Below, piece after piece: positions 1-11,571 of a stretch of DNA of 11,571 nt (the stretch's first letter is position 1; each line of letters begins with the position of its first letter). The notes under the pieces were generated by a model that saw nothing but the letters and a program-made list of their open reading frames with translations, had not been told where the DNA came from and searched no databases. The translations under genes and the position numbers were made by a program. The stretch lies in the UHGV virus genome UHGV-0116702. One strand, given 5' to 3'. The DNA comes from a virus.

Positions 1-57
1 CGAATAGCTTCACTGTGTGGACGTGCTGCATGAACCGGGCGGCTGTCTAAAATCATC

Positions 58-1720
58 AAGGTCTAAATACACTATGAGGATGATTAGGGGTTGGTAGATG
101 ATTCGGATGAAGCATCCTCATTACAAGACCAACTATAGAACTACCTGTTAATAACAGGACAATATCAGGTGAATCCCTATTCAATTTAAAGGCATTTTCC
201 CAAGTATCTAAGCAGTTTTACACAGATTCTATGCAGTATCGGTATAGTCTCTTTTTACCCTAACTTATTGAAATATATAGAGAATCTGTGAAGTCTCTTT
301 TCAGGGAACTATGCAGGGTGTTAGTCGTTCCTCTCTCGACCCTTAGAAAAGTGCTATATACAGGACTATATAACGCTATTCATGCAGTTGGTCACCATAT
401 GTTACAGTTGCAAGAGATAACAATCAGCTATGTGAAAGTTAGGAAGTGATGGTTACAGTTGATTCGGTTAGTTCTAGGAATCAACCTCATAGTTCCTTCG
501 TAGTTCCTCTTAAAAAATCACTTACAGACACCTTAATATCTATACAGATTTCATGTAGAACACGATTAGTGCGTAAAACAGCTATTATGTTAAAAACGCA
601 CTGTATACGTATCAGTACTGATTTATAAGGGTTTTGTGTATTGGATGATAAGAGGCTATGCAGCACCTTGAGAGCATGTCTTCTAAGTCATTGATACATA
701 AGGTCACAGAAGTTTGTGTCTGTTACAGAGAAAACTGGATAGGATTTCACAGAACTATAAAATGTTACAGCTATTGATAGGTTAAATCTTCTTGATAGAT
801 GCTTTGAAGTGTGGTGAAGGTTTCTTGAGGTGGAGCTAAACAGATGCTATGAAGAAAGTCAATGATATTTTAACTGCTTTTGCAAAGGGGGTGCTATATC
901 GTGAATCTGGGGTACTTAACAGCCATCAATTGAGTGTAGATATTTTTTAAGATTATCGGTGAAGGGGAATGTAGAGGGGGGTACTACGATTTTTATAAAA
1001 ATTTTCAGACTCTGAAAAGTTGCTGTACAGATTTTGCACAATCTTACCAAGCCTCATAGAAAGCTCTGTAGCGAGTTTTAACCCCATTTTTAGGGGTAAC
1101 CTGTAGGTATGTACCACCCACCTTAAAATAAAGGGGTAAAATCGCTTAGAATGCGTTACAGAGCGTCTGAGAAGCTATATTCACAGATTTTACTAAAACC
1201 TCAGACTTTCTAAGTGGTCTTTTTAACAGGAGGGGTTCCCCTATGGTCACATATCCCCTCTCTCGCTTAGTGAGCTACACAGACCTAGAGAACATGCTCT
1301 GTAACGCCTTCACAAACATTGACTAAGGTCAACTTCATAAACTCAGAGTTAAGTTACCTTGAAAGATTCTACCAAGAAACTACACAGGTATTATTTAGTC
1401 TGACTGTGAAGAGATGTTTAACGGGAGGAAGAGAACCATGAAAACCGAAGGTAGGTTCTATCTTAACAGTGACTGTAAGAGATACCTGAAAAGATACTTA
1501 ACAGAACTACCAAGAAGAGAGGGAACGATAAAACCAGAGGTAGTGACCTTGTTAAGTAGGTCGTTTCAAAGTCTCTTAAAAGTCTGTTAAGTAAGGGCTA
1601 TGTGAACAATCTTACCATTTTGTCAATGCTTTTGTCTTTGACCTAAATCAATAAAATGTATCGTTTGATGTGCTTTTAAACAAAATAGCTAAAAAATCTT
1701 TTTAGAGGGGCGCTTCGCTT
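58..1720. other. ORF-poor, motif-dense non-coding region (candidate ori / ncRNA / regulatory hub)
   Basis: The six-frame track shows only one 60-aa ORF in 1.66 kb, and it has no RBS. Region contains the conserved box copies at 1063-1075, 1145-1171 and 1296-1308, recurring CTGTGAAGAG and TTACAG/TTAACAG motifs, and a 17-bp perfect palindrome TTTTCAGACTCTGAAAA at about 1003-1019. Confidence 0.5.
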
Positions 1721-2389
1721 GTGTCACATCCAATAATCCATATCGGTCGTTATCATGGTGGTTCTGATGACTGGCGTACACCGTATCGTCTATTTCATAA
1801 CCTGCATCGTGAGTATAGCTTCAGTCTAGATGGTGCTGCAACTGAGCATGACGCATTGTTGCCACGGTTCACCGATGATATTCACAATCAATCATGGGTT
1901 GGTGAACGGGTCTTCGTTAACCCGCCGTTTAGCATGGCTGAACAGTTCCTCCTAAAAGCCCCTGAAGCTGATGTGTGTGTATGTCTGGTTCCGCACAGGT
2001 CAAAGACAACTTACTGGCTTCGGTGTGTATATACAAACCCCTTCCTGCATGAGATTCGAACGTTACACCGAGCGGTTAAATACCTTCCACCAGCAGGAAA
2101 GAGAGGTGTTGTAGCGCGTTCACCGTTTGCAAGTTGCGTTCTGATATACAGGAACACACCCCGTAAACCGAAGGTTGAAGTTACCCAGACAATCTATTGT
2201 GGCGACACAATGCTTTTACTTGCCGTGGTTAACAGGGGTGGTTTACGTGGAAGACCTCATATACACGATGCACAGACGCTTGACAGGTTGATTAAAATGC
2301 ATGACCAAGGGCAATCCATCAAGAGCATCGCAGAATCGCTAAGAATGCCTCTAAGCACCACTTACAGGATTGTTCAAAGGTTGGGCTGA
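1721..2389 (+). CDS. Phage-type N6-adenine DNA methyltransferase (Dam-like) fused to a C-terminal resolvase/invertase-type HTH domain
   Basis: 222-aa ORF with GTG start 10 nt after a GAGGGG Shine-Dalgarno. N-terminal ~155 aa carry DWRTP, LDGAA and the WVGERVFVNPPF motif with the catalytic NPPF tetrapeptide, typical of the small phage Dam family. C-terminal ~60 aa (GRPHIHDAQTLDRLIKMHDQGQSIKSIAESLRMPLSTTYRIV) match the GRP arm plus helix-turn-helix pattern of Hin/resolvase DNA-binding domains. Confidence 0.7.
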   Translation: MSHPIIHIGRYHGGSDDWRTPYRLFHNLHREYSFSLDGAATEHDALLPRFTDDIHNQSWVGERVFVNPPFSMAEQFLLKAPEADVCVCLVPHRSKTTYWLRCVYTNPFLHEIRTLHRAVKYLPPAGKRGVVARSPFASCVLIYRNTPRKPKVEVTQTIYCGDTMLLLAVVNRGGLRGRPHIHDAQTLDRLIKMHDQGQSIKSIAESLRMPLSTTYRIVQRLG

Positions 2390-2428
2390 AATTCTCATAT
2401 AGAGCACTGATTACGAGAATGTTAAAGA

Positions 2429-2462
2429 GGCGATTTCCCCTTTCTGGGGTTATTCGCTTTTT
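2429..2462 (+). terminator. Candidate intrinsic terminator downstream of the methyltransferase gene
   Basis: GGCGATTTCCCCTTTCTGGGGTTATTCGC: nested stems GCGA/TCGC and CCCC/GGGG, followed by TTTTT at 2458-2462. Confidence 0.4.
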
Positions 2463-2597
2463 ACTGGAAGGGTTATTTTACAGAGGTTTTTCAAACCCCC
2501 TCAATAATAGAAACGAGCAACAAACGAAGAGCGAGAAATAAAATATTGAGACTGGTGAACGGGGTCTGTAAAGATTGTTTAAGGGGGCAGTTAAGAA

Positions 2598-2630
2598 GGT
2601 GGCTCTCCCTTTCTGGGGTTATCGCCTTGT
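2598..2630 (+). repeat. Second, degenerate copy of the CCTTTCTGGGGTTAT hairpin motif
   Basis: GGCTCTCCCTTTCTGGGGTTATCGCC shares an ~18-nt core with the hairpin at 2429-2462 but has a weaker T-tract (CTTGTATCTT). Confidence 0.35.
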
Positions 2631-2654
2631 ATCTTAGTGAGTCCAGGAAGTTCT

Positions 2655-2835
2655 CTGTGAAGAGTCTTGTCAGTCCTTTATATTGGGTGATTACAACTCA
2701 TTGAAAAATAAGTGTTTTTAGAATTTACTGTTAAGGTTACAGAGTTAACTGTGAAGAGACTTGTCAGTTCTCTATATATGGCTAATTACAACTAATTGAA
2801 AAATAAGAACTTTTAGAAATTACTGTCAGAGAGGT
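2655..2835. repeat. Two tandem ~94-bp direct repeats (about 85% identity over ~75 bp)
   Basis: Copy 1 starts CTGTGAAGAGTCTTGTCAGTCC at 2655; copy 2 starts CTGTGAAGAGACTTGTCAGTTC at 2749. Both contain ATTACAACT, ATTGAAAAATAAG and TTTTAGAA-TTACTGT. The CTGTGAAGAG head also occurs at 1403-1412 and in variant form at 286-295 and 1468-1477. Confidence 0.6.
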
Positions 2836-2946
2836 GAATACTTGATAGATACAGCTTTCCGGTTCTGTCAAGCTATTTTTTCATAGATAGCACAAAATGC
2901 TAAAGATACCCCTATACCATCTCGTACAGGGGATTTTGGAGGGAGT

Positions 2947-3123
2947 TTAACGGGGGTCTGTGTGGTCATTATCCTTAAGGTCAAGCGTCCATGTATGACC
3001 GAACAGTTTAAAGACAACAAGCACTCTGACAAGGACGTAACGAAGTAGCAGACCTGCAATAAGTCCAATACCTCCACCAGCCCATACATCAGGTGACCCC
3101 AGTTCAGGAGGGAGATTTACCAT
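2947..3123 (-). CDS. Hypothetical small membrane protein (58 aa, one predicted TM helix)
   Basis: ATG at 3123-3121 preceded by AAGGA with 6-nt spacing on the minus strand. Product MVNLPPELGSPDVWAGGGIGLIAGLLLRYVLVRVLVVFKLF... has a glycine-rich hydrophobic stretch. The track ORF 2947-3165 is the same frame extended to a TTG. Divergent from the 3421 operon. Confidence 0.3.
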   Translation of the reverse strand: MVNLPPELGSPDVWAGGGIGLIAGLLLRYVLVRVLVVFKLFGHTWTLDLKDNDHTDPR

Positions 3124-3136
3124 TAGTTTTCCTTGT

Positions 3137-3235
3137 AAGACGCTCTCAATCGCATTCTGACACAAAAAGTACCTGACCTTATGAGTTGACCTTAAGAGGC
3201 TGTTTAACTCGTTACAGAGCGATTGAAGAGGTCTG
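3137..3235. repeat. Inverted-repeat-bracketed element, copy 1 (conserved left and right arms, divergent interior)
   Basis: Left arm AGACGCTCTCAATCGCATTCT (3138-3158); right arm CTGTTTAACTCGTTACAGAGCGATTGAAGAGGTCTG (3200-3235). Arms are imperfect reverse complements sharing GCGATTGAG and GTCTG. Interior contains a doubled TGACCTTA. Confidence 0.55.
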
Positions 3236-3341
3236 TGTGCAATGCAATAACCATGTGACCACTCTCATAGCCACGCCTTTATATTTTACTCTCCCCATAG
3301 AACCATTATACCATAGATGTTAATAAATTGTTAAAAAATGC

Positions 3342-3370
3342 TTGACATTAGTCTTTGAAACTGCTAGTAT
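3342..3370 (+). promoter_or_regulatory. Candidate sigma70-type promoter for the 3421-4658 operon
   Basis: TTGACA (3342-3347), 17-nt spacer, TAGTAT (3365-3370); A/T-rich upstream tract TTAAAAAATG; about 50 nt upstream of the ATG at 3421. Confidence 0.45.
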
Positions 3371-3420
3371 TGTACATATAAGTTAACAGAGAATTAACAA
3401 TTATAAGGACTAGCTTATGA

Positions 3421-3900
3421 ATGAACGACAGAGAATTTAGAGCGATGCTTCAGGCATCAAGAGAACGCAAAGGCATTGACGAAGTAATTCGGGCAATTAC
3501 ACCGAGGAGTCGTTATATGCCAACCAGAAAGAGCACCCAGAACACTATTAAAAATTATTTGGCTAACTTCGACAGCTACGAGCAACTACCAAGTAAGCTT
3601 GATGATATTTTCATTGGATTCTGTAGAAGTGAAGGCCACCCGAAATACAACAAAAAACTATTTTATCTTCTAAAGAATCTTGACGAAATTAACTCAGCTA
3701 CCGTGACAAATTATCTTCAGCGACAAGCAACCAGACTTAGTTATGAATTACCAAGCGATAAATATTGTGCATTGCTTGCTGTAATGTGTGCAAAGCTAAT
3801 TGGTATTGTTGAACATCATATTGCCGTTGGTAATATTGAGCCAATGGAAAACGAGCAACCAGACTTTGAGTTTGACCCGTATATTTTGGAGGAATTTTAA
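3421..3900 (+). CDS. Hypothetical protein (159 aa) with acidic C-terminal tail
   Basis: ATG with AAGGA SD about 11 nt upstream; first gene after the candidate promoter; ends ...ENEQPDFEFDPYILEEF. No family recognised by eye. Confidence 0.6.
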   Translation: MNDREFRAMLQASRERKGIDEVIRAITPRSRYMPTRKSTQNTIKNYLANFDSYEQLPSKLDDIFIGFCRSEGHPKYNKKLFYLLKNLDEINSATVTNYLQRQATRLSYELPSDKYCALLAVMCAKLIGIVEHHIAVGNIEPMENEQPDFEFDPYILEEF

Positions 3901-3901
3901 A

Positions 3902-4183
3902 ATGAAAAACAAACACACATTAACCCGCATTTCAGAGGAAGCTTTTAACGAGCTTACCAGAATTAAACGAGCTACTAACTTGCCTCATCAAACTGTAATG
4001 CAGCTTGCAATTGCTAAAGAGGTTACTGAGTCGGATTTACTGAAATATCCAGTCTCTAAAGGTCGTAAACACATCCGAATTAGTCAGGACGCTTTAGCTA
4101 CTTTGAAGGCGCTTAACGGCTTTAAGATTGATATTGCCCGTCTATTGAGTCTTAAAATTCACAAGCTGTCTCTGGAGGTCTGA
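3902..4183 (+). CDS. Hypothetical small protein (93 aa), possibly DNA-binding
   Basis: ATG at 3902 lies 1 nt after the upstream stop, with GGAGGA about 12 nt upstream. Preferred over the track's TTG start at 3800, which overlaps the upstream gene. Two internally similar segments (TLTRISEEAFNELTRIK / KHIRISQDALATLKAL) suggest a repeated motif; the DNA-binding idea is speculative. Confidence 0.55.
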   Translation: MKNKHTLTRISEEAFNELTRIKRATNLPHQTVMQLAIAKEVTESDLLKYPVSKGRKHIRISQDALATLKALNGFKIDIARLLSLKIHKLSLEV

Positions 4184-4185
4184 TT

Positions 4186-4458
4186 ATGAAGCAATGGCGA
4201 GATGATATTAAACGGTTCTTTGCAACTTACTTCATGATTAATTACGAAACAGGAATGCTTGAATGGATTGATGGTGGAGAGGTTAAGACAAGAGATGACG
4301 CTTACGGTAATCCAATGATTCGTTATGGCACTCGTGATTATTATGTGAAATATGTCATCTGGTTTTTGCATCATGAAGTTCAGGCAACTAAAAAAATTAT
4401 CTTCAGGGATGGTAATAAAAGAAATTGCCACCCAAACAATTTACTACTGGAGATTTAA
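4186..4458 (+). CDS. HNH_3-family (homing-endonuclease-like) small protein, possibly catalytically degenerate
   Basis: 90 aa; ATG 8 nt after GGAGG and 3 nt after the upstream stop. C-terminal YYVKYVIWFLHHEVQATKKIIFRDGNKRNCHPNNL matches the HNH_3 pattern (YYVHRLV...VxHIDGNKxNNxxxNL), but by my manual alignment the HID histidine is Phe (IIFRDGNK). Confidence 0.55.
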   Translation: MKQWRDDIKRFFATYFMINYETGMLEWIDGGEVKTRDDAYGNPMIRYGTRDYYVKYVIWFLHHEVQATKKIIFRDGNKRNCHPNNLLLEI

Positions 4459-4658
4459 TGCTATGTATTAAATTCGAATATTTGACAGATAAAATGATTA
4501 AGCATGTATCAGACCTGCTCATCAAAGAAGATGGTTTCGGTGATGTTTGCAATCCAAAAGATATCTTCATTCACGCCACCAGCCCAAATGAAACACTGAA
4601 AACAGCAGTTACAGCGGAATGGTTTGAACGAAATAAAGTAGAATTAGGCTATTGGTAG
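4458..4658 (+). CDS. Hypothetical protein (66 aa)
   Basis: ATG overlaps the upstream stop (TAATG) with GGAG 5 nt upstream, indicating translational coupling. Track ORF 4425-4658 is the same frame from a TTG inside the HNH gene. Confidence 0.5.
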   Translation: MLCIKFEYLTDKMIKHVSDLLIKEDGFGDVCNPKDIFIHATSPNETLKTAVTAEWFERNKVELGYW

Positions 4659-4692
4659 TCCGAGACTTTAAGAGAAATTAGAAAAACAGCTT

Positions 4693-4816
4693 CTCAGACG
4701 CTCTCAATCGCATTCTAACGCAAAAAACTATCTTATTTTAGGGTGGGTAATACCACTGTACAGGCTACCCCTGAAAAAGACTGTTTAGCTCGTTACAGAG
4801 CGATTGAGGAGGTCTG
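4693..4816. repeat. Inverted-repeat-bracketed element, copy 2
   Basis: Left arm CAGACGCTCTCAATCGCATTCT (4695-4716); right arm CTGTTTAGCTCGTTACAGAGCGATTGAGGAGGTCTG (4781-4816). Arms are nearly identical to copy 1 (right arm 35/37) while the interior differs in sequence and length. Ends 22 nt before the ATG at 4838. Confidence 0.55.
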
Positions 4817-4837
4817 GTAAAAAGGAGATTTTAGGAA

Positions 4838-5161
4838 ATGAACAATTACGAATTACAGATTTTCGTTGATAGCGACACCGCTATGATGATTCAGGCTTTC
4901 ACTGATGTAGGTGTTAGCATTGACTTTGACAGGCTGTTAAGGCTAATGGCTGATAACTCAGAAACAATTGAAGATTTTATTCAGTCGGTGGAGTTTAACG
5001 AGCCTCGAATGATGCTACCAATTAAAGACAGCAACATGAAAAGATTGGTTATCGAGCAAACGAACAAATTCAGCATTAGCCCTGAAAGATATCTCAAGGC
5101 AGCTATAGCAATTTTGTACGCTGACAATATTCTGGTGACGGATTCTGTGAGGATTCACTAA
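4838..5161 (+). CDS. Hypothetical protein (107 aa)
   Basis: ATG 9 nt after AAAAAGGAG SD; no recognisable motif. Confidence 0.6.
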   Translation: MNNYELQIFVDSDTAMMIQAFTDVGVSIDFDRLLRLMADNSETIEDFIQSVEFNEPRMMLPIKDSNMKRLVIEQTNKFSISPERYLKAAIAILYADNILVTDSVRIH

Positions 5162-5238
5162 TGGGTTTAATAATTGCTTGGGCGTTGCTTGGCTTATTTG
5201 TTGGTTGCTGGGTAGGTAACACAGTAAATAAGAATTGA
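5161..5238 (+). CDS. Candidate 25-aa hydrophobic microprotein (MGLIIAWALLGLFVGCWVGNTVNKN)
   Basis: ATG overlaps the stop of the 107-aa gene (TAATG). Sequence is almost entirely one TM-like helix with a polar C-terminus. Too short for the ORF track; support is overlap geometry and composition only. Confidence 0.3.
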   Translation: MGLIIAWALLGLFVGCWVGNTVNKN

Positions 5239-5262
5239 TGTTACCAATCTGTTAAAAAGCTG

Positions 5263-5291
5263 TTGACAAATAACCTTGAGCATGACATAAT
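5263..5291 (+). promoter_or_regulatory. Candidate sigma70-type promoter
   Basis: TTGACA (5263-5268), 17-nt spacer, CATAAT (5286-5291). The track's 67-aa ORF 5263-5466 begins inside this -35 hexamer. Confidence 0.4.
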
Positions 5292-5481
5292 TGTATATAT
5301 GAGGATAGTCTTCTATCCGAAGTCTATGAGGAGAGCAATTCTCTCTTATTTTCTTTCAATAATCCGATGGATGGATATTCTGAGTTGGAAAGGTGCAATG
5401 CTTTTCGTCATGGCCTTTCAGTTTAGTCTGAGAGGCTATCTCAAAAAGTGCTTAATCATTCATTGAACCCTTTACAGCTTT

Positions 5482-5510
5482 GCCCTAACTCATGATTAGG
5501 GCTTTCTTTA
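5482..5510 (+). terminator. Candidate intrinsic terminator
   Basis: GCCCTAA-CTCATGA-TTAGGGC perfect 7-bp stem followed by TTTCTTTA. Confidence 0.45.
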
Positions 5511-5579
5511 AGAGTTTTTAAACAGAGCTTTTAAAGAAAGTTTTTCCTGAAACTTCGTTAACGTTAAAGCAAACCTTCA

Positions 5580-5613
5580 AAGCCCTTCACAGATTATGTT
5601 TAGGGCTTTTCTT
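5580..5613 (+). terminator. Second candidate terminator hairpin (related stem)
   Basis: AAGCCCT - 15-nt loop - AGGGCTT followed by TTTCTT; shares the AGGGCTTT(T)CTT tail with the hairpin at 5482-5510. Confidence 0.4.
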
Positions 5614-5708
5614 AATAGAGCATCTTTAATAAATCGTTAAGTCATCTTCTAAGTGTATTGGCGTTGAAGGTGCTCTATTAAGAAATAACCACTTAGAGGA
5701 AAATTATA

Positions 5709-6419
5709 ATGACAAACGATTTATATATTAACGGTAAAAAGGTTGATAGCTTCGGTGACTGGTCGCCACAGACTGAACATCCAGCTATCACTATCCAGCG
5801 TAAAGAACATGATGAAAGAATTGCACTTGAGCAAGAAATCCGAATGTCACCAAAGGTAATTACCTTTGTAGCTCCTGAGCCTCAAGAGATGCCTGATATT
5901 TGCAAAACTCAAGCATTACTTGAGCTTGAGCGTGAATATTACCCACTGCTGAAAGCACAAAGAATTAAACTTGATATTGCTTACGACAATGTGAAGAACT
6001 TTGAAGAGACTGAAAAGCCAACTGATTTTGATATTGAAGTGGAAATTAGACAAAACCCATTCGTATATTACTCAGTTGAGGATAATGATGGTTTTGGTAC
6101 AGCAAGAGAGAATATCTCAAAAGTTCTTCAAAACATCCCTGAAGGATTCCGTTTAATTGATGTTAGACCAGCTTCACGCGGTACAGGTTCATATATTTTA
6201 CTGTCTGATAAAACAGATGAAGAGATTTGTCAGTTAGCTGAAAAGAATCTACTTGAGCGTCATAGCAAAAAATTAAACAGATTTAAGCAAGAACTTGCTA
6301 ACCAGCTTCAGGCTATGAAAGACCTTATTTCTGCATATGAAACGCAGAAGAAGGTTGCTATGCAGGCTGATATTGAGCAGTTAGTGAAGATTTCTCAGAA
6401 ATACGCAAAGGCACTTTGA
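5709..6419 (+). CDS. Hypothetical protein (236 aa), acidic with helical C-terminal region
   Basis: ATG about 10 nt after AGAGGA SD; long uninterrupted ORF; no family recognised by eye. Confidence 0.65.
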   Translation: MTNDLYINGKKVDSFGDWSPQTEHPAITIQRKEHDERIALEQEIRMSPKVITFVAPEPQEMPDICKTQALLELEREYYPLLKAQRIKLDIAYDNVKNFEETEKPTDFDIEVEIRQNPFVYYSVEDNDGFGTARENISKVLQNIPEGFRLIDVRPASRGTGSYILLSDKTDEEICQLAEKNLLERHSKKLNRFKQELANQLQAMKDLISAYETQKKVAMQADIEQLVKISQKYAKAL

Positions 6420-6444
6420 CTATGAATTAAAAAGGAGGTGATGA

Positions 6445-6648
6445 ATGTTTGATTTAACGGAACGCTATGAACTTATTAAAGCAATTAGCGAGAGATTGAA
6501 AGAACAACCCAACAAACCAAAACGAATCAAATCATCCACCTCTAAACAAAATAACAGAATCAGAAAAATTGCTAAATGGTGTCTGGATAGATTACCAAGT
6601 GATTGTCAGATTGTCGGTGAAGATGGCAATTATTATCTGATTAGGTAA
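6445..6648 (+). CDS. Hypothetical small basic protein (67 aa)
   Basis: ATG 5 nt after AAAAAGGAGG SD; lysine/arginine-rich centre (KPKRIKSSTSKQNNRIRKIAKW). Confidence 0.55.
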   Translation: MFDLTERYELIKAISERLKEQPNKPKRIKSSTSKQNNRIRKIAKWCLDRLPSDCQIVGEDGNYYLIR

Positions 6649-6673
6649 AGAATTGGTTGGGTGAAAATCTACG

Positions 6674-6714
6674 GGAGAGATTATCGAGTGACATCGGTAG
6701 TTTCTCCTTTTTTT
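6674..6714 (+). terminator. Candidate intrinsic terminator
   Basis: GGAGAGA (6674-6680) pairs with TTTCTCC (6701-6707) with one G-U pair, then T7 (6708-6714). The 20-nt loop is long, so confidence is moderate. Confidence 0.4.
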
Positions 6715-6736
6715 GTATGTGTGCTACATGAAATCT

Positions 6737-6787
6737 GTAAAGCTAATATCCACACTGAAAAATAGAATTTACGTAGCTCACGCTTAA
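6737..6787 (+). repeat. Direct repeat A (51 bp, 38-bp perfect core) immediately upstream of the tape-measure gene
   Basis: GTAAAGCTAATATCCACACTGAAAAATAGAATTTACGTAGCTCACGCTTAA. Core 6750-6787 is identical to 9024-9061. Contains a -10-like TAGAAT with no good -35. Confidence 0.8.
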
Positions 6788-6804
6788 AGAGGTGAAAAAT
6801 ATGA

Positions 6805-8985
6805 ATGAGCAAATTCACAGTTGATAGTTTTATCGTTGAACTAGGCTTCAATGAAAACGTTATTAAGGGCTTGCAAAGAGTTGAAAAGGCAGCTTTGCAG
6901 TCAGCACAAAGAATTGAACGTAATTTGAATAGAGCGTTTAAGGTCGATACCAAGCAACTTGACAGCAACCTGACAAGTTCTTTAGGGCAACTTGAAAGGA
7001 AGTTTAATAAGACCTTTGACAAGATTGAACAGAGAGCAAGAAATACTAAAGCTTTCCAGTTTACCACCAGATTTAATGACACTGTTAATCCTCCAAAACA
7101 ACCGAGACAGCCACGAATTAGCGGCAACAGAGCAATCACAGCAGCGCATAGCGTGAATATGTCTAAGCTTGGTGATATTAATCCGCTGATGGCTAAAATG
7201 TTTAAAGCACAGTATTACAGCTTAAGCGGTAAGGCTGGTAATATTGGAAGTGAAAAGTTTAACGCTGAACTTGCAAAATTAAATCAATCTCTTCGTGAAA
7301 CGTTGAATAAACTCAGGTCACAGACAAAGACCACCAGCATTAACAATACAAGCGACGCATTTAATAATCTTGCAAGCAATGCAATCAAGTTATCTGGTGC
7401 ATTTTACTCTGTGATGGGTGCTCTTAACGCTTACAAGGCCATTATGAATGCAGGTCTTAAACGAGATTCCGCACAGAGAGCCGCTAAGTTTGTACTTGGT
7501 GATAAAGCATCTGAAGCTGAGGTATTTATTCGAAATTTAGCAGACAAGACAGGTCTTAATATCTCTGAAGGGCTATCAAGCTACGCTAAGTTTGCAGCAG
7601 GTGCTCAGGGTTCTATGTCACAGGAACAGACACAGGAGCTATTTGGTAATGCAACGGCTATGAGTCGCTTAATGGGGCTTTCTAACGATGAGCTAAACGG
7701 CATTTTGAAAGCATTTGAGCAGATGGCGAGCAAGGGCAAGATTCAGGCTGAAGAGCTTCGTGGACAGTTAGGTGACCGTATGGCTGGTGCATTTAAGCTA
7801 TTCGCTGAAGCATTGGGTATGACTGCTACAGAGCTTGATAAAGCGATGAAAGACGGGAAGATTTTAAGTAGTGATACTCTCCCTAAAGTCGCTAAACAGA
7901 TGGGCTTGATGATTGATAAAGCGGGTGGCTGGGCTGAAGTCGCTAAGAGCACTCAGACAGCTTTAGGGAAACTGGCTAACAACTGGGATGATACGATGGT
8001 GAAAATCTTCTCAGGTTCACAGGATGAGCTAAACGGCTTCTTATCCAGCCTGAGTAACCTGCTTAGTGAAATGGGGATGAGTTCATCTATCGCTGGTGAT
8101 GCTATCGGTGGACTTATCGACATGCTTAAAGCTGGTGTGGATGACATCCGTATCTTTAACAATCACCTTGAAGGCTGGATTCTACAGACTAAGAAGTTCT
8201 ATTACAGCCTTGATGACACTAAACGAAAACTACTTGATGAAGTCGGTGATGGTTTTATCAACTTCGTCAAAGGTCTTGCTATAGCGTTATCTGCAAAGAC
8301 ACTATTCAGTGCTGCTACAGGGGTTATAAACCTGACAAGAGCAATCACAACGTTAGGTACAAGAGCTAATCAGGTTGCTGGTCAGGTAGCTACTGGTAAA
8401 GGTGGTGGAAAACTGAAAGGTGTAGCTGGTGGTGTAGGTAGTGCTCTTGCAATTGGTTATGCTGATGACGGTTATGAAACAGCGTTAGCATTAGCTTCAA
8501 TGATTCCACAAATCAGAGGCGTCACTCTTGGTTTATATGCATTGAAGAAAGCACTGGATTTTATGAATCAGGAAGTAGTCAAAAACGCTAATATGCATCC
8601 ATCTGGGGTAGGTGTGGGTAGTGACTTTAATCCCGTGTATTCTGGTGACCCTAATAAACCGAATATGATTAACGAAGGATGGGGTAGAATTTTTAGTTCA
8701 ATGGGTGAATTGTTTAACAATGCCACAATGAATATTGCAAGATTCAATCATCCAGAGTTAAACAACATTAAGCAAGATTCAGCATTAACGAGTGCAGATA
8801 TTCAGAGTCTGAGGGATGAAATCTCTGCTTTAAGTAAGCGTATTCAGGAGCCTGTGAAAGTTTCCTTGGGTGGTGAAGTTGCCATTAAACCAGATGAAAC
8901 CAGCTTTATGACCTTTAGCAGTAATATCTACGACCAATATGCAGAAGCTACGCTATTAAGTTCATCATTCCCAGAAGATGATTGA
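6805..8985 (+). CDS. Phage tail tape-measure-domain protein (726 aa)
   Basis: N-terminal coiled-coil-like segment, then LNGILKAFEQMASKGKIQAEELRGQLGDRMAGAFKLFAEALGMTATELDKAMKDGKILSSDTLPKVAKQMG, which matches the conserved tape-measure core. Downstream there are glycine-rich hydrophobic stretches (ATGKGGGKLKGVAGGVGSALAIGYA). SD AAGAGG is about 13 nt upstream. Confidence 0.7.
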   Translation: MSKFTVDSFIVELGFNENVIKGLQRVEKAALQSAQRIERNLNRAFKVDTKQLDSNLTSSLGQLERKFNKTFDKIEQRARNTKAFQFTTRFNDTVNPPKQPRQPRISGNRAITAAHSVNMSKLGDINPLMAKMFKAQYYSLSGKAGNIGSEKFNAELAKLNQSLRETLNKLRSQTKTTSINNTSDAFNNLASNAIKLSGAFYSVMGALNAYKAIMNAGLKRDSAQRAAKFVLGDKASEAEVFIRNLADKTGLNISEGLSSYAKFAAGAQGSMSQEQTQELFGNATAMSRLMGLSNDELNGILKAFEQMASKGKIQAEELRGQLGDRMAGAFKLFAEALGMTATELDKAMKDGKILSSDTLPKVAKQMGLMIDKAGGWAEVAKSTQTALGKLANNWDDTMVKIFSGSQDELNGFLSSLSNLLSEMGMSSSIAGDAIGGLIDMLKAGVDDIRIFNNHLEGWILQTKKFYYSLDDTKRKLLDEVGDGFINFVKGLAIALSAKTLFSAATGVINLTRAITTLGTRANQVAGQVATGKGGGKLKGVAGGVGSALAIGYADDGYETALALASMIPQIRGVTLGLYALKKALDFMNQEVVKNANMHPSGVGVGSDFNPVYSGDPNKPNMINEGWGRIFSSMGELFNNATMNIARFNHPELNNIKQDSALTSADIQSLRDEISALSKRIQEPVKVSLGGEVAIKPDETSFMTFSSNIYDQYAEATLLSSSFPEDD

Positions 8986-9010
8986 TTTAACGGTGTTCTA
9001 CGTGAATAAA

Positions 9011-9061
9011 GCAAAGTTAATACCCACACTGAAAAATAGAATTTACGTAGCTCACGCTTAA
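9011..9061 (+). repeat. Direct repeat B (copy of repeat A) immediately downstream of the tape-measure gene
   Basis: GCAAAGTTAATACCCACACTGAAAAATAGAATTTACGTAGCTCACGCTTAA; 48/51 identical to 6737-6787, offset 2274 bp; lies about 80 nt upstream of the ATG at 9142. Confidence 0.8.
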
Positions 9062-9141
9062 CAGAGAAAATACTTATATATCAAAGGCTTGGTTAAAAAT
9101 GATTAAAATACACTAAGCCTTTGAAATCAAAGGAGAATTTA

Positions 9142-9930
9142 ATGATTTTTAGCAATCAAATCCGCTACAGTGGCAAAGATGGCGTTTACTTCCACTTAAG
9201 AGATAATGTAGATGCCTTCTTAACCTTATCAGCAACTGAGAACATGGAATTTGATAGCCCTATGCAGGTGACTACACAGAACATGCAATCAGGGCAAACC
9301 GTCACAGATAATGTGCAAAGAGCACCCAGAACAATCACTATTAGCGGTGTCGTTGTAGTTGGCTATGAAGGGAGCTTATTATTAACTCGTCAGGGTCAAT
9401 TAGTAGAGAACTTCATCGACACTCTTGAAAACTGGCGTGACCAGAAACAAATTATTTCGGTCATCTGTAAAGACGGAATTAAAATTGATGATTCCATTAT
9501 CACAAGTTTTAAAGCCTCTAAAGATGTTGGAATTTCAAACGGATTAAGAATCCAACTAACTTTTCAGGAAATTAACTTCAGAGCTGTTGTGGGGCAGACT
9601 GATATCTCGGCTGCAACTGGAAAAGCCGCGACTACGAACGATGGTGGTGTGACCAGTAAGAAGAATGCAGGTAACGTGACCACTGAACGCAATAACGCGC
9701 CTATGCTATCGTGCAAAGAGCTAATGAGTATTAGCGATGTATCCGGTTACGCTCCAGCTATCAGAAATGATATTCTCGATGCTCAGATTAAGTGTAATAA
9801 GGCTTGGAAGCTGGACTATTCAGACTTAACAGAAGCTGAAAAAACCAACGTCACCAATGCTAATAGTAACGCTGGTCGGGTAGCTTCAAAGCTTAAAAAG
9901 TACTCAGTGAACCCTCACAAAAAATACTAA
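9142..9930 (+). CDS. Hypothetical protein (262 aa); possibly tail-associated on positional grounds only
   Basis: ATG 6 nt after AAGGAG SD; the track ORF from 9121 is the same frame from an upstream TTG. Sits directly after the tape-measure gene, where siphophages usually encode the distal tail protein, but I see no diagnostic motif. Confidence 0.55.
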
Positions 9931-11450
9931 ATCTCTACTACATCAACATCTATTAAACCCCTCTCAGTGACTTCAGAAAGCGACTGTATAGCCTCTGTAA
10001 CGTCCTCTGAGGGGTTTTCTGTTATTGATAAGGTGATTGACTTACCATTGTGAAAAGTTACTTTACAGCGACGTTTAGCAGTATTTAAAACGACCTCTTT
10101 AACAGCACTTTTGATTATCAGTTGTGCTTCAATTCTCCCCGCCTTTGTAGTCAAGTCACAATCAGACAAACACCCCACATCAATAGATTTAAGGCGTTGT
10201 GTCTCCTTCTCGATATCCGCATCAACCTGTGATAGCTCACCTTTTAACTGCTTTAGTTTGATGGTAATAGCTGACAAATCTTCAATTTCAAGTGATAGCT
10301 GTACCAGCTTTTCAATATTGCTTGAGATGTGTTCACGGTGTAGCCTCAACATATCTATGGTATTCGTCGTATCGCTATCAAATCGGTCAAGACGAGATAG
10401 CAGAGTAAGCAATGTACCATCGGTTTGCTTACGTGAAAGTCCTTTAGCACTACAACGGTTTTCATTACGAAGAGGACAACGATAAATCCCGTTTCTTGTA
10501 TCACTAAAGCCTGTGATAATCAGAGCATGACCACATTCAGAACAACGGATAACACCTTTAAAGAGATTCACACTCAATGGTTTATCTGAAACAGACCTCT
10601 TTCCATAACGAGAATGTGATAGTTGTTGAACTTTGTAGAATGTTGTTTCATCTATAATTGCAGGATAATAACCAGCTATCTCCTCACAGCCTTTAGGTGT
10701 GAAGTAACCAATTACAGAGCGATTCTTCAGAAGGTCTTGTACTGAGGTTTGACCAAACTTACCAGCTTTATATTGGTTAAGCGTCTGGTGACCTTCATCA
10801 TTAAGAGTCCTGACAATCGCCCAGATAGATTTGCCCTCTAACCGTAGCTGAAAGCACCTCTTCACAGTTTCTACCTTCTCAGGTATTACAGAGAAGCTTT
10901 TACGGTCATCATTCAGCCTTAACCATGCAGGACAACGCCTAGAAATCTTGATACCAGCTTTAGCAGCTTCTTTCTTTGCATCCCATGCAGCTTGTATACG
11001 CTCAGCCTTACGTAATGATTCCTCATGCGCCCTTTGCATTATCAGAATGCTTTTAATCAGGGATAACGGGTCTCTTAAGCTTTCCTTTGTGTAATGTTCA
11101 CCATCGGACAAGGTGACTACATCTACACCAGAGCGAAGAATGTTTCGTAATAGCTCACTTGCTCGGTCTACGGCCTGACGTGACAAACGGTCTAAACTCT
11201 CGATTAGTAGTGTATCACCAGCTTTAACAAGCCCTTTCTCGATAGCGGTTAAAAAGTCACCTAAGCCACCTTTCAAGTGCTTACCAGTGAATCCACTCAC
11301 ACCTAAATCACGGAAGGATAAATCTTGGTCAAGGTAGTACTCAGGTTGAGCCTTAAGCCAGTCATTAACCATCTTAGACTGTCTGCGTAGTGAATCACCT
11401 CGGGATTGCTTCTCAGATGAAAACCTGATGTAAGAAATGGCACGTTTCAT
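9927..11450 (-). CDS. Large serine recombinase (integrase, 507 aa)
   Basis: N-terminal resolvase-type catalytic domain with the nucleophile motif YIRFSSEKQ and arginines in DRLSR; central recombinase region; Cys-rich zinc ribbon CSECGH...[11 protein letters not shown]; C-terminal coiled-coil-like segment. GAGGTG SD 4 nt before the ATG. Confidence 0.9.
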
Positions 11451-11476
11451 TGTTCACCTCAAAACTGATGCCCTAG

Positions 11477-11505
11477 ATTGTATCGTTTTAGATGGTGTAT
11501 TTAAA
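11477..11505 (-). promoter_or_regulatory. Candidate promoter for the recombinase gene
   Basis: On the minus strand: TTTAAA, 17-nt spacer, TACAAT, about 25 nt upstream of the recombinase ATG. The -35 is weak. Confidence 0.3.
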
Positions 11506-11571
11506 CGTGTCTAATAAAAATCACCCGATTAACGCCGCGCTGATGTAAACCGCGATTAAGCGTTTGTTCCT

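Follow-up and report, generated by a model that had tools for sequence, protein, structure and literature searches.

Satellite proteins of nuclease descent and the locus in UHGV-0116702

NixI, encoded by the PLE of Vibrio cholerae, is an I-HmuI-like HNH/N nicking endonuclease, which attacks the genome of the helper phage (PMC9410903). CapR, a further PLE protein, is a domesticated homing-endonuclease domain that represses the capsid genes of ICP1 (PMC8096241). The catalytic Asn of these HNH enzymes has been validated experimentally in I-HmuI (N96), and the N95A variant of NixI is inactive (PMC9410903). Here, we describe a locus at positions 3342 to 4658 of the virus genome UHGV-0116702, a stretch of 11,571 nucleotides (nt) that is referred to as the window in the following. 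The locus consists of a promoter and four tightly packed genes, g1 to g4 (Table 1), the third of which encodes a short HNH_3-like protein. A reading to which we give about even weight is that the locus forms the promoter-proximal part of the core early, rightward operon of a satellite-like island, in which a nuclease-dead g3 works together with g2. Confidence is high for the anatomy of the operon, the loss of residues in g3, the selection acting on it and the fold of g2, and it is low for function.

Loss of the catalytic residues in g3

The product of g3 matches the Pfam family HNH_3 (PF13392) with 23.5 bits (E = 4.4e-5), which is below the gathering cut-off of 24.8 bits, and the match extends over residues 52-88 of the protein and positions 1-38 of the 46-position profile. 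The protein was aligned in two ways: a profile built from g3 together with its closest relatives was compared with I-HmuI (1u3e; E = 0.0097), and g3 itself was aligned to intact HNH_3 enzymes encoded by a related island and by the phage garuso. Both alignments set 'IIFRDGNK' of g3 on 'VDHKDGNK', placing Phe73 at the catalytic, general-base His and Ile72 at the Asp, which correspond to D74-H75 of I-HmuI. In addition, 'VKYV' aligns with 'VHRL'. The structural part of the motif is retained, namely D75-G-N-K78 and N85-L86; the chain then stops five residues after NL, and the helix carrying the catalytic, metal-binding Asn is absent. The roles of His75 and Asp74 in I-HmuI were reportedly worked out by Shen and colleagues in 2004. 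An earlier note on this DNA, made from the letters alone, had proposed that g3 is an HNH_3-like protein that keeps DGNK and NL, lacks the HID histidine and has lost the upstream histidine (KYV instead of HRL). All of this is borne out by the two alignments, and since the Asp and the Asn helix are also gone, the loss of residues goes beyond what had been claimed. Judged by these substitutions, the g3 allele of the window almost certainly cannot cut DNA.

The frequent relative of g3 in other islands, g3', is only 40% identical to it. In g3', His73 and a terminal Asn95 are invariant, and the protein scores 33.4 bits against HNH_3, thus exceeding the gathering cut-off; it lacks the Asp and most of the Asn helix. 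A third HNH-like lineage of 100 amino acids (aa) carries Leu at the position of the His and is found in an alternative early module described below. The three lineages are 18-40% identical to each other and share the same short architecture. It is conceivable, and in our view quite unlikely, that g3 is still a NixI-like nickase acting on the helper genome, with non-canonical residues or residues supplied by its partners g2 or g4. Such an activity would fit the observations that genes for I-HmuI-like HNH/N nickases such as the PLE NixI mark PLE-like satellites, that the majority allele g3' possesses the His and the terminal Asn and exceeds the Pfam cut-off, and that g3 is tightly coupled to g2, a protein of the ribbon-helix-helix (RHH) kind that assists relaxosome nickases. 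However, all three catalytic or metal-binding positions are gone in the window allele (Ile72, Phe73 and no Asn helix), replacement of the single Asn suffices to inactivate NixI, and Phe73 is fixed in all 39 copies of g3 that were compared.

Constraint on g3

Among 43 loci with g3, 39 copies are full-length and ungapped, and these fall into 25 nucleotide haplotypes. We counted 19 synonymous changes at about 51 sites and 16 non-synonymous changes at about 219 sites, which yields a ratio of non-synonymous to synonymous change (omega) of about 0.20, a crude value that is not corrected for phylogeny. Besides the invariant Phe73, the segment FRDGNKRNCHPNNL is almost wholly invariant, and variation is concentrated in the three C-terminal residues, whose codons overlap with the beginning of the following gene. 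On these counts, g3 is judged to be kept by purifying selection and not to be decaying. The suggestion of the earlier note that g3 is a pseudo-nuclease with a retained function is therefore a fair reading, as the catalytic residues are lost and the gene is under purifying selection. A recent sweep of g3, which the absence of synonymous differences among the first five islands had suggested, was dropped when the larger sample revealed the 25 haplotypes. The idea that g3 is one half of a full-length endonuclease split by a frameshift was likewise rejected, because three unrelated genes follow and no frame encodes the missing helix.

These data also bear on the view that g3 is functionless and decaying, being what is left of a free-standing gene for an HNH homing endonuclease that inserted into the operon and merely hitch-hikes with its neighbors. 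Several properties of the locus would be expected of a remnant: the catalytic residues are lost, g3 occurs at two positions relative to g4 and one island has no HNH gene at all, intact HNH_3-AP2 genes reside elsewhere in related islands, some copies of g3 are frameshifted, and identical g3 DNA is present in several otherwise diverged islands. Decay, however, is difficult to reconcile with an omega of about 0.2 in the His-less lineage and of about 0.16 in the sister lineage g3', with an open reading frame (ORF) fixed at a length of 90 or 95 aa and a residue 73 that is invariant within each lineage, or with a short architecture shared by three such divergent lineages. The DNA downstream of g3 contains no leftover of the missing helix either and is occupied by the unrelated genes mentioned above. 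We thus consider a remnant very unlikely. Nor does g3 look like a free-standing homing endonuclease itself, since it has neither catalytic residues nor a DNA-binding module, and its presence is not sporadic.

Promoter and anatomy of the operon

The earlier note had placed a TTGACA-17-TAGTAT promoter in front of four tightly packed genes, and this arrangement was found as described. A promoter scan of the window detected 13 sites compared to 9.5 +/- 3.1 in shuffled sequences, meaning that the match alone is not above chance; the promoter was accepted because it is conserved across islands. All 57 related islands have the -35 hexamer TTGACA, and their extended -10 region reads TGCTAGTAT in 41, TGCTAAGAT in 10 and TGCTAGGAT in 6 of them, thereby retaining TG and TAnnAT in every case. 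The four genes lie on the same strand downstream of this promoter and are joined by tight junctions, which are kept in all variant islands. The Shine-Dalgarno sequences GGAG(G) of g2, g3 and g4 are each located within the end of the preceding gene, and the true start of g4 is the ATG at 4458 and not the TTG at 4425. By their anatomy, g1 to g4 are thus predicted to be a translationally coupled operon. No terminator-like sites were detected on the + strand between 3370 and 5329, the first ones being located at 5329 and 5482. As a terminator is missing after g4, the transcription unit probably reaches the gene for a 107-aa protein that starts at 4838, which is probably the fifth gene of the same unit.

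A conserved mini-ORF of seven codons (ATG at 3417) overlaps the start of g1 (ATGAATG). The 58-aa protein encoded on the opposite strand (MVNLPPELG...) has one predicted membrane helix, shares 79% identity with its counterpart in a diverged island and has been annotated in some genomes.

The products of g1, g2 and g4

Searches of g1, g2 and g4 against Pfam, PHROGs, NCBIfam and PADLOC returned nothing usable. The structure of g2, predicted by AlphaFold2 with a predicted local distance difference test score (pLDDT) of 91.4, comprises the elements E5-11/H12-25/H29-37 and E55-61/H62-71/H78-92, that is, two beta-alpha-alpha units in one chain, as is characteristic of RHH proteins. Foldseek matched the model to chain 9f0z_E of the F relaxosome, to DndE and to the viral regulator AvtR with probabilities of 0.96-0.99; we take 9f0z_E to be TraY. 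At the sequence level, all models remained below threshold and only a weak match to DndE was obtained. Based on the model, g2 is a single-chain tandem RHH protein and a presumed DNA binder. It exists as two alleles in the island family, with omega values of 0.09-0.31. The three unknown partners of g3 that had been postulated can consequently be reduced to two: g2 has a recognizable fold, and g1 and g4 are without a known domain.

In the window, g1 is shortened by an in-frame deletion of 75 nt, which falls into a low-complexity stretch at the N-terminus, and the gene product has 159 aa compared to 184-185 aa in relatives; the 159-aa version is absent from the 120 database matches listed, all of which have 183-185 aa. 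The structure model of g1 is all-helical and poor (pLDDT 45), and an acidic C-terminal tail is predicted. Omega of g1 is 0.12-0.37, and its diversity therefore seems to reflect mosaicism more than clear positive selection. At 90% identity, g1 forms about 1100 clusters, g2 93 and g3 about 10. For g4, omega is 0.1-0.2. A role of g4 as excision factor of the island recombinase was rejected, since identical g4 occurs together with recombinases that are only 32% identical and use different attachment sites.

Variants of the operon and the slot after g3

Wherever sequence upstream of g3 is available (about 60 loci), the locus contains g1, g2 and a small HNH-like gene, and g3 is always located directly after g2 (about 70 islands). 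The slot after g3 is variable: it is occupied by g4 in 23 loci, by genes for 76- and 69-aa proteins in 7 and by a gene for a 128-aa protein with a resolvase-type helix-turn-helix (HTH) in 10. A further 24 loci have the order g2-g4'-g3', where g4' is 71% identical to g4 of the window; the position of g3 relative to g4 thus varies among islands. The metagenome sample of loci was anchored on g3, and the proportions of these arrangements are biased accordingly. In complete Escherichia coli genomes, the g4'-g3' block is present in 226 and the His-less g3 in about 73, of which 37 have g3-g4. Most islands have g2-g4'-g3' rather than the g3 order of the window. In a third type of early module, present at a coverage of at least 80% in 51 genomes, an HTH_36 protein and an acidic protein of 197 aa take the place of g1, and a homolog of g2 is kept (hhalign probability 95% for the module of the island L010). 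The types of g1, the alleles of g2 and the lineages of g3 combine freely, and the island as a whole is a mosaic of freely recombining allelic blocks.

In view of this distribution, the description of the locus as a new accessory module does not hold. The operon is instead the core early operon of an island family (about 60 loci); its four genes are no fixed set, since the slot after g3 varies and most islands carry g2-g4'-g3'; and a new portable module is contradicted by the fact that the four genes were not found outside the island family, an outcome that had been named beforehand as one that would speak against it. Homologs of g1 to g4 outside the family were searched for, and none were found except distant His-less HNH_3-like domains in metagenomic proteins. 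The role in helper-phage interference or defense that had been suggested is plausible in its first part, given the Felixounavirus-like tail genes, the serine recombinase and the PLE-like layout of the island; for the second part, PADLOC models yielded no matches to g1-g4 and g3'. That the operon is a self-contained anti-phage defense or toxin-antitoxin cargo, which stands apart from the life cycle of the island, is highly improbable. Small uncharacterized products, a variable slot and a highly diverse g1 are what might be expected of such cargo, but besides the missing PADLOC matches, its genes never occur outside the family and occupy a fixed core position beside the divergent promoters in every island examined.

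The island and its relation to Felixounavirus phages

In other E. coli genomes, the two terminal segments of the window (~1-48 and ~11517-11571) lie next to each other within the core gene yecE; therefore, the window is one complete insertion of about 11.5 kb in yecE, spanning ~49-11516. It is a discrete integrative element with its own large serine recombinase, as is typical of PLE-like satellites. Related islands are located either in yecE or between yciI and tonB, and the recombinases of the two sites are only 32% identical. When the 107-aa gene is used as a marker of the family, 405 of 5426 complete E. coli genomes are positive, and a scan of GTDB representatives anchored on the same gene detected it in two Escherichia species only. 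Among the homologs of the operon proteins, the named source genera are Escherichia, Shigella, Salmonella and Citrobacter.

A specific genetic link to a putative helper phage is provided by the tape-measure and Dit-like genes of the island, which share up to 89-95% DNA identity with the consecutive Felixounavirus genes garuso_118 and garuso_119. When all proteins of the island were compared with the Felixounavirus garuso by tblastn, these two genes were the only ones with a match. The similarity of the island promoters to phage early regions is weak and not significant (E 0.4), and a DNA search with positions 3300-4700 against 50,697 phage records yielded no match. By analogy, the island may be a satellite-like parasite of virulent Felixounavirus phages that follows a logic like that of the Vibrio PLEs; we consider it a candidate for a satellite of a virulent coliphage or for an element interfering with the tails of such a phage. 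A bolder version of this reading, which we regard as possible and put forward tentatively, is that the window represents a complete member of an undescribed satellite family, which has virulent Felix O1-like phages as helpers, unusually carries its own tape-measure and Dit-like tail genes and, as an enterobacterial counterpart of the Vibrio PLEs, resides in Escherichia, Shigella, Salmonella and Citrobacter. The RHH protein and the minimal HNH protein would then be a NixI-like module for takeover of the helper, which would have become free of catalysis repeatedly (Phe or Leu in two of three lineages) and would now act as a non-cutting inhibitor or decoy bound to DNA or to protein. No description of the island family or of a Felixounavirus satellite was found in the searchable literature, the coverage of which is incomplete and does not by itself prove novelty.

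A possible mode of action

In the mechanism that we propose, the operon would be transcribed from the sigma-70 promoter, and g2 would then provide sequence-specific DNA binding. Without catalysis, g3 may act as a DNA-associated or partner-binding subunit, and the target could be the DNA metabolism or gene expression of the helper phage or the DNA of the island itself. By analogy with satellite effectors, g3 may thus represent a member of a lineage of satellite HNH proteins that has been domesticated and is nuclease-dead, and we infer that it acts together with g2.

Several findings weigh against this proposal. In contrast to full-length I-HmuI-type enzymes, g3 has no recognizable DNA-binding domain, and the free combination of alleles of g2 with lineages of g3 speaks against tight co-evolution of an interface between the two proteins. 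An operator of g2 in the 5' untranslated region was rejected, as the type of this region tracks the first codons of g1 and not the g2 allele. About 8% of the g3 database sequences are frameshifted or fused, and the constraint is therefore not absolute; the island L013 lacks any HNH-like gene. With regard to satellite status, no replication initiator, capsid, terminase or excision factor was recognized in the island, and IMG/VR contains only two matches, both of them genome-derived contigs.

The second possible target deserves consideration in its own right. Instead of acting on a helper phage, g2, g3 and the slot gene might serve DNA transactions of the island, marking its origin or packaging site and recruiting the terminase or replisome of the helper, comparable to relaxosome accessory proteins or small terminase subunits. 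The resemblance of g2 to TraY, a DNA-bending helper of a nickase, the resolvase-type HTH of the 128-aa slot protein and the HTH_36 protein opening the alternative early module, a kind typical of replication initiators, would all be compatible with such a role, as would the large ORF-less repeat regions flanking the operon and the fact that no other replication or packaging gene is recognizable in the island. A binding site, however, was not identified, the arms of the hairpin described below do not co-vary with the g2 alleles and nothing ties g3 to a terminase or replisome; a role restricted to the DNA of the island is consequently unlikely, albeit worth keeping in mind. Our preferred reading, a nuclease-dead g3 that works with g2 in the core early operon of a satellite-like island, would accommodate either target.

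Further features of the island

Downstream of g4 lies a 118-nt imperfect hairpin, which has a paralog and a partial inverted copy elsewhere in the window (Table 1). It folds with a z-score of -3.4, shows little covariation and has no match in Rfam; an Rfam search of the whole window gave no match either. Together with the 95-nt paralog, the hairpin brackets the operon. This downstream hairpin is almost invariant even where the neighboring proteins are only 55-77% identical, and it occurs with two alternative apical sequences. The element might function at the RNA level or as a DNA site. A binding site of g2 in its arms is unsupported, since the sequence of the arms does not differ between islands with one or the other g2 allele.

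A 69-nt repeat (87% identical) is located at 6719-6787 and 8993-9061, directly upstream of both tail genes, with a partial inverted copy at 534-563. It stands in for the phage's own upstream sequence, has no match in the phage garuso and possibly serves both tail genes as a common late promoter or control element. Large stretches of the island are devoid of ORFs (56-1720, 2400-2830 and 5170-5700). Internal repeats are found in the form of ~94-nt units at 2649-2826, the pairs 2421/2590 and 5492/5596 and an inverted repeat at 5608-5685, making these stretches candidates for an origin or a packaging region. The cargo found in the left ORF-less region varies among relatives and includes intact HNH_3-AP2 genes, a small recombinase and insertion sequence elements.

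Beyond the operon, the island also encodes three further small genes. The fusion of a Dam methyltransferase to an HTH is the best-conserved protein of the family, being 95% identical even in the most diverged island. A 236-aa protein (5709-6419) is called 'transposase' by NCBI in several genomes; this name looks unsupported, and no match to Pfam, NCBIfam, PHROG or PADLOC models was obtained for it.

Table 1. Coordinates of promoters, genes and hairpin elements in the window, and of alternative early-operon cassettes in other islands
Feature	Position	Strand	Remarks
Partial inverted copy of the hairpin	1146-1207
Dam methyltransferase-HTH fusion gene	1721-2389		N6-adenine methyltransferase; resolvase-type HTH
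58-aa membrane-protein gene	2947-3123	-	faced by the divergent promoter
95-nt hairpin paralog	3139-3233		5' of the divergent promoters
Divergent sigma-70-like promoter	3334..3305	-	TTAACA-18-TATAAT with TG; both hexamers conserved across islands
Operon promoter	3342-3370	+	-35 TTGACA 3342-3347; 17-nt spacer; TG 3362-3363; -10 TAGTAT 3365-3370
g1	3421-3900	+	159 aa
g2	3902-4183	+	93 aa; 1-nt gap after g1
g3	4186-4458	+	90 aa; 2-nt gap after g2
g4	4458-4658	+	66 aa; TAATG overlap with g3 stop
Imperfect hairpin, 118 nt	4697-4814	+	between g4 and 107-aa gene; almost invariant in all island types
107-aa gene	4838-5161	+	no terminator-like site between g4 and its start
Tape-measure gene	6805-8985
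Dit-like baseplate gene	9121-9930
Large serine recombinase gene	9927-11450	-	507 aa; island integrase
Alternative early-operon cassette	L010 7615-9862
Alternative early-operon cassette	L014 7273-7709
Alternative early-operon cassette	L020 2773-3159

Significance and comparison with known systems

Should the island be a Felixounavirus satellite, it would offer a tractable PLE-like system in E. coli, which parasitizes a strictly virulent phage and whose helpers, such as Felix O1, wV8 and Bas63-type phages of the BASEL collection, are already available in common collections. In that case, the His, Phe and Leu lineages would form a natural series illustrating how a nuclease effector of a satellite turned non-catalytic. 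The locus is also relevant for annotation, as g3 is called 'HNH endonuclease' on thousands of public contigs even though every catalytic position is gone in the window allele. The whole island may merit more attention than the operon.

The closest analogs are two PLE proteins, NixI and CapR. NixI is encoded by a small island that is integrated by a large serine recombinase and parasitizes a virulent myovirus, as is proposed for the island described here. NixI and g3 are each related to I-HmuI only at the HNH core, are encoded by a conserved hallmark gene and are preceded by ORF-less space. The layout in common with PLE-like elements further includes ORF-less repeat regions and a small membrane protein, with the 58-aa protein of the island recalling LidI of such elements. 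NixI, however, possesses N95 and nicks DNA, whereas g3, with only 90 aa, is devoid of the His and Asp residues and of the Asn helix. CapR resembles g3 in being a satellite protein of homing-endonuclease descent, and it works without cutting DNA. CapR originates from the DNA-binding part of T5orf172/GIY-YIG-type enzymes, whereas g3 is the remnant of a catalytic HNH_3 core. Within PLE, CapR represents the opposite trajectory to the nicking NixI.

With I-HmuI (1u3e) and the HNH_3 enzymes of phages, g3 shares the N-terminal beta-rich region and the DGNK...NL scaffold, its identity to Felixounavirus HNH genes being 30-34% over about 57 residues; it differs from them by the loss of the catalytic His, Asp and Asn and of the C-terminal DNA-binding domains. 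The putative partner g2 adopts the same doubled beta-alpha-alpha pseudo-dimer fold as TraY of the F plasmid relaxosome, DndE and AvtR, but its sequence identity to these proteins is only 6-17%, and no family model reaches threshold. The nearest relatives of g3 outside the island are found in the metagenomic proteins P0015, P0016, P0019, P0020 and P0022, which have Phe or Tyr at the position of the His and in which the domain likewise ends after NL. In contrast to the single copy in g3, these domains occur as tandem copies, often two, within proteins of 240-295 aa. The His-less HNH_3-like domains of these metagenomic proteins thus constitute a wider clade, which extends beyond the island.

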